Shown one piece after another: positions 17,814 to 24,774 of a stretch of DNA of 64,000 nt (its first letter is position 1; each line of letters starts with the position of its first letter). A model generated the notes under the pieces. That model searched no databases, had not been told where the DNA came from, and saw nothing but the letters and a program-made list of their open reading frames with translations. Where the stretch lies: positions 1 to 64,000 of IMG/VR virus record IMGVR_UViG_3300032214_001486. One strand, given 5' to 3'. This DNA is from a virus. The translations under genes were made by a program, and so were the position numbers.

Positions 17814-18188
17814 ATGTCTTGTTCCCTCTGTAAGCGCCGCGGACACAACAAGGCGACGTGCGCGCGTAACACAGAAAAAATCGCAAGCGATGAAAACAAG
17901 CACAAGGAAATACGGTCGGCGCTGGGCACTAAGCCGGACACCGAGATTGCGCGAGACTTTGGCGTTTCCCGACAATGGGTGTTCAGGTTGCGTCAACGGT
18001 GGAAGATCCCGTTATCGTTTGACGCAAGCAACCCGGAGCGGTATCATCCGGGGATTATGGCGCGGCTGGGCGTCGATCCAGATGCCGAGGTTGCGCGAGA
18101 CTATGGCATTTCTCCGCAACGGATAGCTCACCTGCGTCAAGAGCGGAAAATCCCGGCGCCCCCGAAAAAGCAAAAGAGCGAAACCTAA
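17814..18188 (+). CDS. CCHC zinc knuckle plus two HTH repeats
   Basis: CSLCKRRGHNKATC; LGxxPDxExARDxGxS repeats. Confidence 0.75.
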   Translation: MSCSLCKRRGHNKATCARNTEKIASDENKHKEIRSALGTKPDTEIARDFGVSRQWVFRLRQRWKIPLSFDASNPERYHPGIMARLGVDPDAEVARDYGISPQRIAHLRQERKIPAPPKKQKSET

Positions 18189-18244: not shown

Positions 18245-19141
18245 ATGCAAGCCCCAAAAGAGCGGATCAATCTGTGTTCCTCCTGCGGAGCGCGGGACCA
18301 CAATGCGTGGACCTGCACGCAGCGCGCGTCAAAGTACGCGCAGGCTCTCCCCCTGCTGGCTTCGCACACCAATCAAGAAATTGCGGAAAAGCTGGGCGTG
18401 TCGTTGTCTAACGTCCCTTGGTGGCGGAAGAAGGCGGGTATTCCGCGCCCGCAGCCGCCCCAGCCGCCCCAGCCGCGGCAAACGGCCTGCTCTGCCTGCG
18501 ACCAGCGGGGGCACAATTCGCGGACTTGCCCACAAGGCCCGACGAGATACGCGCAGGCTTTCCCCCTGTTCGCTTCGCACACCAATCAGGAAATTGTGGA
18601 TAAGCTGGGTATCCCGCTCTCCACCGTCGAGTATTGGCGTGGGAAGGCGGGTATTCCCCAACCGTTGCCCGTTAAGCCCCCGCCGCAGCTTACGGACTTG
18701 GAGAGTAAATACCCCGGCCTCGCGGCAAGGCTGGGCACGGAAGCCGACTCGGACCTGGGCCGCGCTTACGGGCTCAGCCGGCAGCGGATACAACAGCTTC
18801 GCCTACAGCGGGCTATCCCGTCTGTGGTCGTCCCGATCACCCCGGAGATCATCGCCCTGCTGGGCACCATCCCCGACACTGAGATCCACGAACGCTACCC
18901 GCAAATTTCCGTCTATCGGCTGCATCGTGCTCGGCAGGCCCGCAATATCCCCACGGCTGTCCTGCCTTATGAGCAAGCCGTCAAGGAGCGGCTGGAGAAC
19001 GCAAAGGATCAACTCGGGGTCGTTCCTGACAAGCGGATTGCGAAAGCCTTGAAGGTTCACGTCGAGACTGTGGCCCGCTACCGGAAAAAGCTCAATATCG
19101 CCCCCGTGCGGCGCGGAGGCAGGGCCCGTGCCCAAGCCTAA
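18245..19141 (+). CDS. Protein with two CCHC knuckles and multiple HTH repeats
   Basis: Duplicated CxxC...HN...C plus ASHTNQEI..KLG module; three LGxxxD repeats. Confidence 0.75.
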   Translation: MQAPKERINLCSSCGARDHNAWTCTQRASKYAQALPLLASHTNQEIAEKLGVSLSNVPWWRKKAGIPRPQPPQPPQPRQTACSACDQRGHNSRTCPQGPTRYAQAFPLFASHTNQEIVDKLGIPLSTVEYWRGKAGIPQPLPVKPPPQLTDLESKYPGLAARLGTEADSDLGRAYGLSRQRIQQLRLQRAIPSVVVPITPEIIALLGTIPDTEIHERYPQISVYRLHRARQARNIPTAVLPYEQAVKERLENAKDQLGVVPDKRIAKALKVHVETVARYRKKLNIAPVRRGGRARAQA

Positions 19142-20803
19142 CAAGCCCCTGGCGCTCGCCGCCGGCCGACTGCTATCTGCGGCTGAATTTGAGCAGCTAC
19201 GGGCAAACTATAACGAGGCGCACGCGCAGACCTGCGCCCGCATGGACGAATGGGCCGCCGTTAGTGCCCAGGCCGCGGAGGCTTTTAGGCGGTACTCCGA
19301 GGCCGCGCAGGTCCGCGACGCATTGTTTGATCAGCTTGAAGCCGCGCGGGAAGCCTTGGCCTTGGCGGTCTACGCGGAACAGCAAAGAATGAGGAAAGGG
19401 CAAGATGACCAAGAACAATAAGCGGCGTGAATTTCTCCCCCTGGTCCCCCTCGACACCCCGGAACAATGGGTAGCGCAGGCGATCCGCCTTTACGGCTTG
19501 ACCTACAATTTCATGTTCTCCCCAACCCCATCTGAGTACCGGCGCCTGGAAAAGAGGCTCGCGCAGCTAAAAATGAGCACACCGGAACAATACAAGACGG
19601 GCGTTCACCTCATCGGGCCCGGCGCGGCCCACCTGGGAGAAGATATTTTTGTGGCCGATGGTGTATTGACGCACTATATCCACCTTGATTGTCCTCGATG
19701 CAACAAAGCCGGTCTTATCGCCCGCGACAAGACTCTGTTCGCGGAGGCGGAGACAAAACGCTGGTGTACGAAGTGCAATCAATTTGTGTCGCCGTGGCCG
19801 CGGTGGAAGCCGACAGTGACGCTTCTACCGTTGTCGGAGGAGGACCATGAGCCGAAGTGACCGGAGTAATCTTCTCTTAGCCCTCACGGGGCTTTTCTTC
19901 TTCGCCGTACTGATCATTCCGGTCGGGGCCCTGACCGTAGCGGTCTATTCTGTGTCGGGTTCTGCTGGCTCCGTATTCCTACTCATTGTTCTCGCGGCGT
20001 TCCTGTTCGCATGGGTTTGGGCGTGGAAGGCGCCGATCAAGGGGGTCTAAATGACATTGGATCTAAACACCGTCCGCTTTGGGCGGGGCCTGCACCGCAA
20101 GCGGACTGAAATTACCGGCGACAGAGATATGTGCATCATGGAGGCTGTGGCCCTTTTTGCGGGCGAACCTTGGAGTGATTACCCCGCGTGCGCTTCGCCG
20201 GTTATCTCTGCGTTTCTTCGCTCTTGGCAGGATGAATTGTCAGACGAGGAACGAGATCGCCTTCTGCCCGCGTCCGTGTGGGTTCCCCGTTTGATTGGGT
20301 CGGCAAAAACTATAGGCGTAGAGCGGCAGCGGGGTTACATGCTGGCGGATTGGTTAGCCCGCATCTATACGCAAGCGTGGCTGAACACTGATCCAAGGTA
20401 TGCAGACTTAGGCCGGACCTTGCCGAAGGTTACTGACGGGCCCACTTGGGACGAGGCCATCGCTGTTCTTAGTGAGGCTTATCGCCAGATCACCGCGGCA
20501 CCGCCCCCCAATTCTCTGCCCTTGCCTGTTAGCGCAAGGCAAGGAATTTGGGGTGTGTGGGGGCGCACCGGAGTCAAAGCGGTGAAAAGCACACTAAACC
20601 GCTATGAATACCTGGGCCCGTCCCCGCATACCTTAAACGTCCCTACCGATCTCCAAGTACCGTTCATGGCTGCTGCCCTTGTTCCGGCCCCGCCGACCCC
20701 GGAAATGCCCCTGCCCCTGCCGGTTATCCCCGATCAGCTACTCCGGCCGTTGCAGGATAGTGTGCTCAACCTTCTGGATCGACTGCTGAACGTGCAGGAT
20801 TGA
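19128..20803 (+). CDS. Four hypothetical genes (19128-19421 coiled coil; 19405-19860 with two CxxC; 19847-20050 two-TM membrane protein; 20051-20803)
   Basis: Coupled ORFs; motifs read from translations. Confidence 0.6.
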
Positions 20804-20854: not shown

Positions 20855-21403
20855 ATGGGGAATAATAAAATCCAAGTGTGCGATCAGGTTACCAACGCTG
20901 AATATCGGCGGTTCCGACCGGGCCATGTGTTCCCTTCGCACCACGAAAACAAGCCCGTGGTCAACGTCACTTACAACGACGCGATGGCCTATGCTCAATG
21001 GCTTTCCCGGTCCACCGGGGAGCAATACCGGCTGATCACTGAGTCTGAGCGGTTGGAGGCTGAGTCTACTTTTGTCGCTGATTTCTCAAAGCACCCGCTA
21101 CCTGAGATGCCCGACGTGGGCGCGTTTGGGCACAACGCCGAGGGGGTAACCGGGCTGCTCGGGGTCACCTACGATTGGTGCCTGGACCCGGAGGATATGC
21201 ACAAGGTACTTGCCGGATGGGCCGCCCTCCCGGCCCCGGCCCCGGCCCCGCAGCCCGCCGCAGCCCCGCAGCCGGCCGCGGGCTTTGCGGGCCCGTCCCT
21301 TATGTCCACTCTGCTTCGCTTGCGGGCTGAGCAGTCTAAGCTGACCGAGGAAATCGCCGCCATTGAAGCCGCGCAGGCTATTTGGGCAAAGTACAATGGT
21401 TAA
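20855..21403 (+). CDS. FGE-sulfatase (SUMF1/C-type lectin fold) domain lacking its C-terminal segment, plus PA linker and coiled coil
   Basis: VTNAEY, PVVNVTYNDAMAYAQWLS, YRLITESE, GLLGVTYDWC; no RGG(S)W or GFRLVR. Confidence 0.8.
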   Translation: MGNNKIQVCDQVTNAEYRRFRPGHVFPSHHENKPVVNVTYNDAMAYAQWLSRSTGEQYRLITESERLEAESTFVADFSKHPLPEMPDVGAFGHNAEGVTGLLGVTYDWCLDPEDMHKVLAGWAALPAPAPAPQPAAAPQPAAGFAGPSLMSTLLRLRAEQSKLTEEIAAIEAAQAIWAKYNG

Positions 21404-21680
21404 ACTTTGGCGAGTCCGTCGGGGCGGTGACGCGCTCAGTAACTTAATTGGCCGCCATCGCGGTTACTCAGAACCCACCGAGTGCAATTCGTGTACGGGT
21501 ATCCGTCTGGTCCGAAACAAAAAGACGAACAAGGGGAAAGCAGAGAAGGTAAAGCAACGCCCCAGCCGCGGTGGAGATTGGGTTAGCATGGATGCGAGCG
21601 TTGTTTACGGCCGCAGCTTGGAGGACGGGGCCTATGGGCTGCTGGGTATCCGGCTGGTCCGCGTTCTCCCCGACCCGTGA
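21396..21680 (+). CDS. Small protein made of two FGE C-terminal segments (RGG...GIRLVR x2)
   Basis: ATG overlaps the upstream stop (ATGGTTAA); RVRRGG..GIRLVR and RPSRGGDW..GIRLVR. Confidence 0.7.
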   Translation: MVKLWRVRRGGDALSNLIGRHRGYSEPTECNSCTGIRLVRNKKTNKGKAEKVKQRPSRGGDWVSMDASVVYGRSLEDGAYGLLGIRLVRVLPDP

Positions 21681-21689
21681 GCACGGCCC

Positions 21690-22283
21690 ATGAGCACAAT
21701 GTATCGGCACCATCGCGGGGGATACTACGCGAGTAGCCCTGAGATACAGCGGCACGCCGGCCGGAATTATAGCTCTCCTACCTACCGTTGGCCTAACTTG
21801 GGTATCCGGCTGGTCCGCGTTGTACCCGAACCCCAGGAAAACAAAATGACAATGAATACCGACACCACCACCGACACCACCACCGACACCACCACCGACA
21901 CCGACGCCGACCAAAACCCCTTTGTGTTTCAAGTCCCGGCCTGGGCTAACCGGAAAATGGGTGACCTGTCCGCAGCCGACGTGCTTGCGCGGGCGCAGGC
22001 CCTCGCCAGTTCTTACTACCCTCTCGCCACGCAGACGGGTATTCACTCCATGATCGAATGGTGTGGGGTCATGGGCGAGTACGTCAATATGCTGGGTGAC
22101 GCCCACAAATACCACGGCATTGACCCTCGGAGCGTTGATCAACACTCGGGGGAGGCGGTCCCGGCCCAGCCTTTCCAGATTGAGTACATCTGCGAAAAGC
22201 TGGGATGCCAGCTAAAACCCTTCATCCGGGCCAACAAGGACGTGTGGCGCCGGGCGATCAACCGTTGGTTTGAGGACAAATAG
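21690..22283 (+). CDS. Third FGE C-terminal segment fused in frame to a DTTT-repeat hypothetical protein (internal start 21846)
   Basis: RHHRGG..GIRLVR; AGGA RBS plus ATG at 21846; 12-bp GACACCACCACC repeats. Confidence 0.65.
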   Translation: MSTMYRHHRGGYYASSPEIQRHAGRNYSSPTYRWPNLGIRLVRVVPEPQENKMTMNTDTTTDTTTDTTTDTDADQNPFVFQVPAWANRKMGDLSAADVLARAQALASSYYPLATQTGIHSMIEWCGVMGEYVNMLGDAHKYHGIDPRSVDQHSGEAVPAQPFQIEYICEKLGCQLKPFIRANKDVWRRAINRWFEDK

Positions 22284-22284
22284 C

Positions 22285-24185
22285 ATGAGCACGACCGATT
22301 TAATCCATCGGTCCCCGTCTGCCGTGGTCCCCCAGGCGACCCCAGGAGAGGTATTAGACATACCGGGAGGGCCGACCTGGGAGGATGCTTTTCGCCTACT
22401 TGCTCGTCTAACGTGTGTGGGCCCCGTTTCGTCACGACAGGTAGAGCGTTGGGTCAGGGCCATGCGGGAACGCAACCCCGCGGCGGCCGACGTGATTATG
22501 GAAACCTTTAATACGCATAGAACCCAATGGGATCAAGATATGATGGGCTGATAGGCCCACCGGGGGGGAACATGAGCGATAAACAGGAAGTAAGGGCCCT
22601 GCTGGCCCAAGTGTCCCAATTGTGTACGGTGTATATGGAAGCCGGCGGAGATCCGGGCCTATTGGCGGACGGGCTGCGCGAGCAGGCGGATACTCTCTGC
22701 GGACAAGGGAAGGTCACGCCCGAGGCTGTGGCGCATTTTGGTGTCGTCCTCACGGGGCCGGATGCCTTGGTACGGGCAAAGGAATTGGTGGCGCGCGGGG
22801 ATCACCTTCTCGTCAGGGTAACGGACGAACGCGGTTATCTCTACGAGGTCCGGCGCTACGCCGATGGTGTCGTTTGCCGCCGTACTTCACCCCTAAAGGT
22901 GGGGGACCGGGTGCGCTACACCCAATACGGAGGGGCCACGGTCGAAGGTTGGGTGACTCACGTTACGCTCATGCCCCCCATCACGGAGCGGGAGGGCGAG
23001 TTAGCCTATCGGCTACACCTGAGCGCCGAAAACAAGGCAAAGGTGGGTCATCCGGTCACAATCCCGCATAGCCGGGTTGAGCTAATCTGGCCCGAGAAAG
23101 CCATCGAAGCGACGGCTTTTGTCTCGCTGCATGACGGGAAGCGCCTGGGCTGGAAAATCGTTCGCGGCGATCTTCGGGTTTGGTTCTCTTACAATCGTTA
23201 TTGTGGCGTCGGGGAGCAGCGGCCCCCCAGCGGGGAAGTCGAGATCCAGCGGCGGACGTTCGATAATTGGGAGGAAGCGGAGGTTTGGTGCGCGAGCTTC
23301 CCGGCGCACCCGGCTGAGGGGGGCTCGCCCCCAAAAGTAAGCCCAACCTACTATCCGGGCCAAATTTGGCCTTCGCAGCACAACCCCGTCGCGCCGGAAG
23401 GGGAAGCACCGGAAGGGGAAGCGCCGGAAGCGGAAGCAACATGAGCCGTCAGCGCCGGAATGTCGTTTGTACGGCCTGTGGCCGCCGCGGGCGGGTGTCA
23501 GACCCCACCAATACGGGCGGGCGGCCCCCCTGCTGCGGTGTGTGGGCCGACGCCGCGGCTGCTGCCCGGTGTGCCGCTTGCGGCGGCCCCGTGACGTTGG
23601 AAGGCCCCAGGCAGCCCCGCATCCCCCAACCCGCCGCTACTCCGAGGATTGACCGTGACCTTAAAGCCCCTTAATGTGCCCCCGCCCTACACCTTGACGG
23701 ACGCCGCCGGCAGTCCTCCGGCCTTGGTCCTTGCGACTCTCGTCCTTGACGGTACGCCAAAGGATTTACCAATAGTGCCTGTCATCGTGGCCCATGTGGT
23801 GAATTGCTTTGAGCGTCCGGGTGAACAGGCGCCGCCCAACGGCCCGATCACGATCACCGAGCGGGGGCGCGGCCTGCTTGATATGGCCTGTACCATTTAT
23901 GCTGAACCGGCCCTTGGTGCGCCCGACGAGGATCGTAGACGGGCACGCGCTTTTGTTCTTTTCCGGCGGGAATGGGCGAGCTACCTGTACGCCCTGCTTT
24001 CCCAGGCAGCCCAGGCAGCCCCGGCAGCCCAGGCAGCCCCCGAAGCCAAGGCAGCCCCCGAAACGATTGTATGCCCGGTCGCCAAAGCGAACGGTTACGG
24101 TAGGCTTATCGAGATCGACGCCCTGTTTTTGTTGGAGAATGACTATTTTGTGTTGCCTCGGGAATATCAAACGGGTCGTGGATGA
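22285..24185 (+). CDS. Four hypothetical genes (22285-22551, 22572-23444, 23441-23674 Cys-rich, 23649-24185)
   Basis: Tandem coupled ORFs. Confidence 0.55.
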
Positions 24186-24204: not shown

Positions 24205-24774
24205 ATGACTGTAGAGCACCGCACCGCTACTCATTCTGCGGACACGGCCGCCCCGCCCGCCGCGACCACCAGCACCGGCCTCGCCGCGTCCAACCTTGGG
24301 CGTACATGGAGCCCCTTCAACCTGATCCCCGATCAGCTTGGTGCCCCCTTTAAGGCGGAGAGCCGCCGCGACGGCGAGGAACCCGACACCCTGGAAAGGT
24401 TCACCGTCTGGATTGGCGACGACCCGCGCGATGACCCGCACACGCACCCGTGGCCTTTCACCACCACCATCCTGACCGGCGGCTACACCGAGCGCCGCTA
24501 CCGCAAGGGCCCCGATGGCGAGTGGCGCGAGATCGGCGTGTATGTCCACCGGAAGGGGGCTGTGGTCGAAGTACCCGCAGGCGACGCCCATGTGGTCTAT
24601 GACGTGCTCCCCGGCACGACCACGCATATGAAAATCGGCAAGCTGACAGCAGGCTCGCGGGATTGGGGTCACTTGGTTCAGGCCGACTCGTCGGGCGAAT
24701 TGACCTACGTTCCGAATGAGTCCGACCCCTCGTTTCTCGGCCGCCTGCAAGCTCTGAACATCCGGCCAACCTAA
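24205..24774 (+). CDS. Cupin-like (double-stranded beta-helix) protein
   Basis: PHTHPWPF..ILTGGYTE...H metal-binding pattern. Confidence 0.65.
   Translation: MTVEHRTATHSADTAAPPAATTSTGLAASNLGRTWSPFNLIPDQLGAPFKAESRRDGEEPDTLERFTVWIGDDPRDDPHTHPWPFTTTILTGGYTERRYRKGPDGEWREIGVYVHRKGAVVEVPAGDAHVVYDVLPGTTTHMKIGKLTAGSRDWGHLVQADSSGELTYVPNESDPSFLGRLQALNIRPT

Follow-up and report, generated by a model that had tools for sequence, protein, structure and literature searches.

A truncated FGE-type lectin gene and three separately encoded variable-region cassettes suggest a phage binder completed in trans

Introduction

The variable proteins of diversity-generating retroelements (DGRs) represent the textbook case of a single chain with a rewritten tip. 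In these proteins, the last segment of the domain is the ligand-binding variable region, and it also supplies the final strand, which pairs with the first strand of the fold. What, then, is to be made of a gene whose lectin-type domain stops just short of this segment, with the segment itself present three times in the DNA that follows? This question is raised by a freshwater phage, IMG/VR virus record IMGVR_UViG_3300032214_001486 (linear, 104,974 bases, 85% complete), the first 64 kb of which (positions 1 to 64,000; hereafter, the window) were analyzed here. The finding concerns three adjoining genes on the plus strand: a scaffold gene encoding a formylglycine-generating enzyme (FGE)-type C-type-lectin core, gene 2, which carries two copies of the missing segment (hereafter, cassettes), and gene 3, which begins with a third. 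An initial annotation of this DNA had proposed either that one scaffold is completed in trans by alternative peptides, or that the cassettes constitute a library shuffled by recombination. As developed below, we consider it probable, although well short of certain, that the locus encodes a split FGE-type C-type-lectin binder completed in trans by alternative tips that were formerly written by a DGR.

Results

The scaffold gene encodes a lectin core without its last segment

The scaffold gene and its parts are as follows.

20855-21403, plus strand: scaffold gene, 182 amino acids; FGE-type C-type-lectin core without the last segment, then a linker and a helix
20855-21229, plus strand: lectin-fold core, residues 1-125, ending in GVTYDWCLDPEDMHKVLAGWAAL; contains the majority of the invariant columns of alignment A1
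21230-21298, plus strand: P/A/Q-rich low-complexity linker, residues 126-148, read from the sequence
21299-21400, plus strand: C-terminal amphipathic helix, residues 149-182, conserved in the family

The scaffold protein matches the Pfam family FGE-sulfatase (PF03781) above its gathering score (2.5e-12; 47.4 bits, with a cut-off of 23.3), and the match is restricted to profile positions 63-121 and 167-192 of 255. A six-frame search of the record for the same family gave 38.6 bits, or 47.3 when neighboring matches in frame were included, and the scaffold is the sole FGE core in the 104,974-base record. The core breaks off after the equivalent of the GNVWEW motif (GVTYDWC), so that a whole FGE-sulfatase domain was not found here in one polypeptide; the RGGSW...GFR terminal segment lies on separate genes. 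The initial annotation had read FGE motifs up to GVTYDWC followed by a PA linker, in agreement with both the Pfam coverage and the sequence, and the C-terminal part that follows is a helix. Invariant positions of this helix in the family alignment are L156, L163, E171, and A173, and its counterpart in a related protein, P0002, was modeled as a helix as well (H218-241). The linker contains indels between samples at 21234-21262 (18 nucleotides lost, 12 gained), indicating that its length is not constrained, and a close relative (P0001/L005) carries a 4-residue insertion in it.

The missing segment occurs three times downstream

The missing last ~40 residues (RGG...GIRLVR) are found three times downstream of the scaffold gene, twice on gene 2 and once at the start of gene 3. 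A search of the whole 104,974-base record with a profile made from 17 cassettes of the window and its relatives returned exactly three places, with E-values of 1e-14 to 3e-21 that are inflated because the three window cassettes are rows of the profile; the individual values are included in the list below.

21396-21680, plus strand: gene 2, 94 amino acids, two tandem cassettes; its ATG overlaps the scaffold stop codon (ATGgTTAA)
21408-21515, plus strand: cassette 1, residues 5-40, WRVRRGG...CTGIRLVR (profile E 1.5e-14)
21516-21566, plus strand: basic linker between cassettes 1 and 2, NKKTNKGKAEKVKQRPS, read from the sequence
21567-21677, plus strand: cassette 2, residues 58-94, RGGDW...LLGIRLVRVLPDP (profile E 3.6e-15)
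21690-21833, plus strand: cassette 3, residues 1-48 of gene 3, ...HRGGYY...NLGIRLVRVVPEP (profile E 2.9e-21)
21497-21514, plus strand: conserved 3' end of cassette 1, GGGTATCCGTCTGGTCCG, encoding GIRLVR (repeat search)
21644-21661, plus strand: conserved 3' end of cassette 2, GGGTATCCGGCTGGTCCG (repeat search)
21800-21817, plus strand: conserved 3' end of cassette 3, GGGTATCCGGCTGGTCCG, 23 nucleotides identical with copy 2

Each cassette starts with R-x-x-R-G-G and ends with L-G-I-R-L-V-R, and between these constant ends, the three interiors are unlike one another and could not be aligned (alignment A3). At the DNA level, the 17-nucleotide word GGTATCCGKCTGGTCCG occurs three times where 0.08 occurrences would be expected by chance, and no further copy with up to one mismatch was found in the record beyond the three cassette ends. 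Thus, the initial description of this region, comprising a terminal segment present twice in 21396-21680 and once at the start of the gene at 21690, similar 3' ends at 21497, 21644, and 21800 with copies 2 and 3 identical over 23 nucleotides, and completely different interiors, agrees with the sequence and profile, the repeat search, and alignment A3, respectively; the search for additional GIRLVR cassettes that it had proposed led back to the same three places across the whole record.

A programmed frameshift fusing the scaffold with gene 2 was also considered and rejected, as there is no slippery site and the cassettes of relatives lie in all frames, both before and after the scaffold.

Relatives share the split layout and include natural fusions

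Relatives of the locus came from metagenome contigs; searches for the scaffold in viral contigs and genome contigs returned none. The 18 close homologues of the scaffold (162-247 amino acids) all end at the same truncation point and all have the linker and helix, and an exhaustive profile search defined a small scaffold family, with 15 representatives at 1e-30 or better. Loci with scaffolds that are ~50% identical follow the same design at GC contents of 0.45-0.60, with one to four cassette mini-genes upstream or downstream of the scaffold, and cassettes touch the scaffold gene in nine other loci. In locus L008, the scaffold is followed by a two-cassette gene homologous to gene 2, in L006 by two mini-genes, and in L011 by four, and in L009 and L013, three mini-genes precede it. 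A relative that is 96% identical (L005) has the same genes as the window, gene 2 included, and gene 2 also occurs in P0244/P0252. Mini-gene length is 41-59 codons; each has its own ATG, they lie in different frames, and overlaps of a few bases are common.

The peptides encoded by these mini-genes match the end of the Pfam FGE-sulfatase profile, positions 204/212-254 of 255, with the best match (L009:900-1067, E 5.9e-5) right at the gathering score. Given that the scaffold covers positions 63-192, the two pieces fit together.

Several details of individual arrays were also recorded. In L009, the acidic-tail codons that follow RLVE (GAG GAA; 1050-1075) lie at the Shine-Dalgarno position for the next mini-gene, and the middle cassette (1067-1216) begins with MTNKK and then frameshifts. 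Neighboring mini-genes of L013 overlap by 14 nucleotides (590-600), and the upstream cassette of L010 (1-191) contains stop codons.

In some relatives, the two pieces are joined in a single chain. The normal domain order, scaffold followed by cassette, is seen in P0022 and P0030, and scaffold, helix, and cassette follow one another in P0021. The circularly permuted order, with the cassette ahead of the scaffold, occurs in P0002, P0004, P0005, P0008, P0020, and P0027, and P0060 and P0070 combine a scaffold with two cassettes. The scaffold part of the permuted forms is still preceded by an AGGAG motif and an ATG, at which several gene calls start, implying that a free scaffold may be made from these genes as well. 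Cassettes also occur alone, with at least 191 clusters of cassette-only small proteins at E <= 0.01 in public data; among the best 120 of these, 55 have two cassettes and 51 have one.

One sequence difference bears on both partners. Scaffold position 7 is K or R in every relative, with E following RLV in the cassette, and the window lineage has Q7 together with R in all three cassettes. As a single event, this swap is a weak hint of co-evolution between the scaffold and the cassettes.

Structure models predict that both cassettes of gene 2 complete scaffold cores

A complex of two scaffold cores (residues 1-126) and gene 2 was modeled alongside three controls. The interface score (ipSAE) was 0.82, and 0.00 for the best of the three controls; 58 of 80 solved complexes attain this mark, as do 2 of 110 mismatched pairs. 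Runs agreed in at least 92% of contacts, with a partner predicted local distance difference test score (pLDDT) of at least 66. In the model, cassette 1 (residues 10-43) sits on scaffold copy 1 and cassette 2 (residues 55-91) on copy 2, both on the same scaffold surface (residues 5-12, 34-43, 46-50, 56-66, and 102-108), which holds many of the family-invariant columns, and the linker between the cassettes is mostly outside the contacts. The pLDDT of the scaffold was 86-87 with gene 2, compared to 47-50 with unrelated partners. The score shows that the pieces are complementary as modeled, which is not proof of binding in the cell.

Models from AlphaFold2 of a permuted fusion and of the intact relative P0022 place the G-x-R-L-V strand with a pLDDT of ~80-90 and the cassette interiors below 50. 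At E <= 0.001, the P0022 model exclusively matches structures with the FGE fold (PvdO, bacterial and human FGE, TvpA, and PorK), the best being PvdO (5hha, 2.6e-5), FGE (6muj), and TvpA (2y3c, 7.8e-5). For the permuted fusion P0002, model quality was low (pLDDT 68) and the Foldseek matches were weak, the best at 1.5e-2 to PvdO.

These results bear on a different explanation, in which the cassette peptides act without the neighboring scaffold, for instance as free peptides or through a different protein with the FGE fold, encoded by the phage or the host. An IMG/VR virus fragment (G001/L020; 75.7 kb) carries six tandem cassette mini-genes (L020:2426-3400), and a search of its 75.7 kb found neither a scaffold nor an FGE core; moreover, cassettes outnumber scaffolds in every locus. 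However, this fragment is only 50% complete, cassettes adjoin the scaffold gene in the nine loci noted above, natural fusions put a cassette and a scaffold in one chain, and when an unrelated protein replaced the scaffold in the control models, the pLDDT of the cassette protein dropped to 28 and the score to 0.00. We therefore regard action independent of the scaffold as distinctly unlikely. Of the two readings first proposed for the locus, completion in trans is better supported than shuffling, by the complementarity of the pieces (0.82 versus 0.00), the conserved layout, and the fusions, with the docking itself being a prediction of the model.

Cassettes vary between strains in their interiors and are not visibly shuffled

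Variation between samples was read from assembled contigs (Logan), which can miss rare forms. Contigs of four other samples bridge the scaffold and cassette 1, cassettes 1 and 2, and cassettes 2 and 3 in the same order as the window. In these contigs, no stops, frameshifts, or rearrangement joints were found in the cassettes, and indels were confined to the P/A linker and to a TDTT repeat in gene 3. The initial annotation had raised the prospect of unique decay or misassembly; the order is the same in the four samples and relatives share the layout, so that neither accounts for it.

Four near-identical versions of gene 2 differ almost exclusively inside the cassette interiors. The P0252 version has an identical cassette 1 but many changes in cassette 2, among them an insertion of two residues. 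The RGG and GIRLVR ends are unchanged among near-identical strains, in which the scaffold differs at 2-3 of 182 positions, and one sample has 8 changes within 52 nucleotides of cassette 1 compared to 5 in ~540 nucleotides of the scaffold. Such clustering is what diversifying selection would be expected to produce in a binding surface that is carried by a constant frame. Relative to L005, the ratio of nonsynonymous to synonymous changes (dN/dS) is ~0.3 for gene 2 and 0.17 for the scaffold core, in both cases on few changes. Judging from the lack of stops, this ratio, and the clustering of differences in the interiors, the cassettes look functional.

The 18-23 nucleotides of identity at the 3' ends of the window cassettes could also point to cassettes that are silent DNA donors, with recombination at the 3' ends moving one of them into an expressed gene in a manner similar to pilin or shufflon systems. 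Consistent with such exchange, the cassette fused to the scaffold in P0005 is exactly the cassette that is free as the second of three in L013, as a deletion between G-V-R-L-V repeats would produce, and this indicates that recombination between conserved ends occurs over evolutionary time. Yet the conserved ends are direct rather than inverted repeats, the scaffold gene has no resident cassette to be replaced, and every cassette has kept its own start codon and reading frame across relatives. Neither an acceptor site nor inverted repeats were found in the window, and where rearrangement at the repeats had been suggested as a check, contigs of the four samples contained no joint between cassettes. 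In the arrays of relatives, the conserved ends differ at synonymous sites, and since the identity of the 3' DNA is therefore not general, the conserved end reflects a constraint on the protein as opposed to a recombination site. We consider silent donors very unlikely, and programmed shuffling is not supported; what stands of the proposed shuffled library is occasional turnover in evolution, as in P0005. For the 23 identical nucleotides in the window, a recent duplication or local conversion is the best reading.

Two related candidates were rejected: a dedicated recombination site at the 3' end, because synonymous sites differ between cassettes within the arrays of relatives, and variation by a shufflon or invertible segment, given the direct repeats and the lack of joints in contigs of the four samples.

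Cassettes of relatives carry the codon signature of a DGR

That the missing segment corresponds to a DGR variable region had been part of the initial annotation, and the cassettes of relatives bear this out at the codon level. A column-by-column alignment is possible between the cassette DNAs of L009 and L013, with constant codons identical even at synonymous sites and all variable codons of the form NNC. Codons of this form are the outcome of mutagenesis of AAC template codons (PMC5758913). Their frequency in cassette interiors and in the scaffold gene is as follows.

L009: 40/52 codons in cassette interiors, 59/192 in the scaffold gene (p 2e-9)
L013: 55/81 codons in cassette interiors, 29/93 in the scaffold gene (p 1e-6)
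Window: 28/72 codons in cassette interiors, 62/182 in the scaffold gene (p 0.28)

The signature is thus present in L009 and L013 and absent from the window cassettes, and the link to DGR variable regions is shown in relatives only. The fragment L020, which was found by its pattern of constant codons, has 38.5% GC; cassettes 1 and 5 of its six tandem mini-genes have a GC content of 0.57 and are rich in NNC codons (21/26 and 23/29), and the other four have drifted toward the composition of the genome, implying that newly written and fossil variable regions stand together in arrays. Cassette 3 of the window retains the 34-codon skeleton seen in fresh variable regions of relatives: 13/19 constant codons encode the same residue and 35/57 of their bases match, compared to 15/45 bases at the variable codons. 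These sequence comparisons lead us to regard the window cassettes as descended from DGR variable regions and now frozen, with variation between strains that persists mostly in the interiors.

No reverse transcriptase (RVT_1) was found in the window, as stated initially, or in the rest of the 104,974-base record (85% complete), and likewise no Avd (PF05635) was found in the record at E <= 1. RVT_1 was also not found in G001 or among ten Pfam-scanned long open reading frames of L007 and L008. A template repeat paired with a variable repeat was not encountered, the cassette profile finding its three places in the record only, and a template-like pattern (AAY at the variable codons) had no match in viral contigs. 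In sum, neither a reverse transcriptase nor a template was found in any fragment examined. The variable-region pattern matched two genome contigs, a Lysobacter genome and a Solirubrobacterales metagenome-assembled genome, and these matches were taken as chance because they lie outside a cassette-like reading frame in GC-rich DNA.

The lack of a reverse transcriptase, Avd, and template repeat in the record, together with the lack of an NNC signature in the window and the broken copies in relatives (the frameshifted middle cassette of L009 and the upstream cassette of L010 with stops), would be expected if the cassettes were in decay, left over from a former DGR target locus and now without function. 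We hold this to be most improbable, as all three window cassettes are intact in five independent assemblies, their interiors change between constant ends that do not, the layout is retained at ~50% sequence divergence, and dN/dS is below 1, albeit on few changes.

Gene 3 joins a cassette to a widespread phage domain

Gene 3 begins nine bases past the gene 2 stop codon and contains the following features.

21690-22283, plus strand: gene 3, 197 amino acids; cassette 3, a T/D repeat linker, and a phage-family domain
21835-21848, plus strand: AGGAA motif resembling a Shine-Dalgarno site, with an internal ATG (21846) at which the downstream domain may start separately
21858-21917, plus strand: 12-nucleotide tandem repeat encoding TDTT units, linker (repeat family D1)
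21918-22280, plus strand: C-terminal domain similar to phrog_37280 (PHROG match 5.9e-11 over residues 92-174)

Its C-terminal ~120 residues belong to a widespread phage family with 71 homologues, mostly stand-alone proteins of 118-145 amino acids without a cassette, and a cassette ahead of this domain was found only in the window and in P0169 (95% identical). The internal ATG and the AGGAA motif could start the phrog_37280-like domain alone. The coordinates first given for the locus were correct overall, except that this ATG lies at 21846 and not 21845. The fusion may be a used tether of the domain to the scaffold or a mini-gene with a lost stop codon.

Two side observations concern this gene. 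The TDTT repeat (21858-21917) has length variants between samples and attracts many unrelated contigs, with a depth of ~60 compared to ~6 elsewhere. The core of the phrog_37280-like family is conserved (...HSMIEWCGVMGEY...).

The arrangement of gene 3 raises the possibility that the split fold is a docking device that glues proteins together, with gene 2 cross-linking two scaffolds, perhaps oligomerized through their helices, and cassette 3 tethering the phrog_37280-like domain. A single gene 2 chain holds both scaffold copies in the complex model, proteins with two cassettes are as common as those with one (55 and 51 among the best 120), and cassette 3 is in frame with an unrelated domain in both the window and P0169. 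A pure tag, however, should keep its interior, and the interiors are the most variable part, among paralogues as well as near-identical strains; furthermore, the DGR signature in the interiors of relatives fits ligand recognition, and the fusion to the phrog_37280-like domain is limited to the window lineage. On balance, a docking device seems unlikely, if still worth weighing.

The locus lies among DNA-metabolism genes

On the plus strand, the locus is surrounded by DNA-metabolism genes, including those for a helicase (2.7 kb), an exonuclease (9.8 kb), a Sak4-like annealing protein (26.5 kb), and a methyltransferase (30 kb), and no virion protein is found before 51 kb in the gene order of the window. 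By position, the locus does not look like one for a tail-fiber tip, and no signal peptide was found in the scaffold protein. As the locus is part of a DNA-metabolism module rather than a tail module, the target of the binder may be intracellular.

Searches of Pfam and PHROGs gave no match for gene 2 or for the neighboring regions 20051-20803 and 22527-23444. Farther upstream, 18245-19141 encodes a 298-residue protein of internally repeated layout, in which two motifs resemble CCHC zinc knuckles and several units are of the helix-turn-helix type, with three stretches matching HTH_23 (1.9e-11); the open reading frame at 17814-18188 (124 amino acids) appears to be a shorter paralogue. On the other side of the FGE-like scaffold, ~2.5 kb downstream, 24205-24774 (189 amino acids) has a weak match to the cupin of a "cysteine dioxygenase" PHROG (phrog_4786, 1.1e-9). 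The contigs of two relatives (L007:4007-5356 and L008:14861-15946) encode a VWA-domain protein and an AAA_5 (MoxR-like) ATPase, and a 3D-domain protein lies directly upstream of the locus in L007.

Discussion

Based on the data presented above, the reading we favor for this locus is a split lectin-fold binder. In this model, the scaffold gene would make the constant three quarters of the fold together with the linker and helix, and the missing last segment would come from cassettes that are translated separately, a tandem pair on gene 2 and a single one at the N-terminus of gene 3. The constant ends of a cassette would dock into the scaffold and its free interior would form the binding surface, so that one body could carry any of three tips, and the two-tip protein encoded by gene 2 would hold two bodies. 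The cassettes would descend from DGR variable regions, and with no DGR left, the frozen tips would change by ordinary mutation. We infer that the cassettes are translated, that they bind ligand, and that the resulting proteins have a biological role.

Several observations weigh against this reading. The window cassettes have no Pfam FGE-sulfatase match of their own and are recognized only via the family profile, and the in-frame run of cassette 3 into the next gene may be a lost stop codon without function. The six-cassette fragment G001 shows that adjacency to a scaffold is not universal, and cassettes might therefore have another partner. The passing complex score may come from likeness, because the two pieces are halves of a fold with many solved intact structures, and given that the interiors were modeled at low confidence, a binding surface cannot be described.

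A broader and more speculative interpretation, which we regard as possible but rather doubtful, is that binding diversity in this group of phages is kept as an inherited collection of tips that attach non-covalently. A resident or borrowed DGR would write tiny stand-alone genes, duplicates that are no longer rewritten would form an archive of past specificities, and tips competing for one scaffold would yield mixtures of binders, including bivalent ones, in each infected cell. The window phage would then represent an end state in which the archive was kept and the writer was lost.

If a tip gene does complete the fold in trans, the phage carries several specificities at once on one scaffold, and a naturally split lectin fold with exchangeable 40-residue tips could serve the design of modular binders. 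The position of the locus among DNA-metabolism genes, unlike placement at a tail-fiber tip, also raises the question of what the binder targets.

DGR-type lectin variable proteins are themselves known, and what is new here is that such a protein is split, and sometimes permuted. In our literature search, DGRs with multiple targets and targets of the FGE type were found, but neither a split target nor variable-region genes that stand alone. In its account of the clustering of target families, the largest DGR survey (Roux et al. 2021, PMC8144416) left out targets shorter than 300 nucleotides, and surveys that start from reverse transcriptases and apply this exclusion would therefore be expected to miss a class of split tips.

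The closest known systems are the FGE-type variable proteins of DGRs. TvpA of Treponema denticola (PDB 2y3c) belongs to the same fold family, as judged from the match of the P0022 model (E 7.8e-5), and the cassette corresponds to the same variable-region segment as in FGE-type DGR targets, with RGGSW...G-x-R-L-V closing the domain (Wu et al. 2017, PMC5758913). The cassettes of relatives share the AAC-to-NNC codon pattern of mutagenic retrohoming, and tandem targets, up to eight, are known in DGRs (PMC5758913). In contrast with these targets, the variable segment here is a separate gene of 41-59 codons, or two in tandem, located on either side of a scaffold gene that breaks off at the point where the segment would be expected and that has a linker and helix at the breakpoint, and the window lacks a reverse transcriptase, Avd, template repeat, and codon signature.

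The DGR of Bordetella phage BPP-1 (mtd, avd, TR, brt; PMC2408619) likewise acts on a lectin-fold phage protein in which the C-terminal variable region is the ligand-binding surface and the place where diversity is created. Mtd, however, is one chain at the tip of the tail fiber that is rewritten by a resident retroelement (PMC2408619), whereas the window locus lies in a DNA-metabolism module and its diversity consists of three fixed, separately encoded tips with no retroelement.

Formylglycine-generating enzymes and related proteins (human 1y1e, bacterial 6muj/2q17, and PvdO 5hha) are the best structural matches of the intact relative, and the scaffold passes the Pfam cut-off for this family. 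The catalytic cysteines of human FGE, C336 and C341 (PDB titles 2aft and 2afy), lie in the segment that is the variable cassette here. By sequence inspection, this cysteine pair was not found in the window, as cassettes 2 and 3 have no cysteine and cassette 1 has C-N-S-C directly before GIRLV, which is not the position in FGE. The domain here is also half the size of an FGE.

In shufflons and invertible tail-fiber segments (R64 Rci, Mu Gin, and P1 Cin), a site-specific recombinase joins segments at the DNA level via inverted repeats. These systems and the window locus have in common that alternative C-terminal segments lie side by side for one constant N-terminal part. Here, by contrast, the repeats are in direct orientation, joints were not observed, every segment is a gene in itself, and the joining of constant and alternative parts is proposed to take place at the level of the protein.

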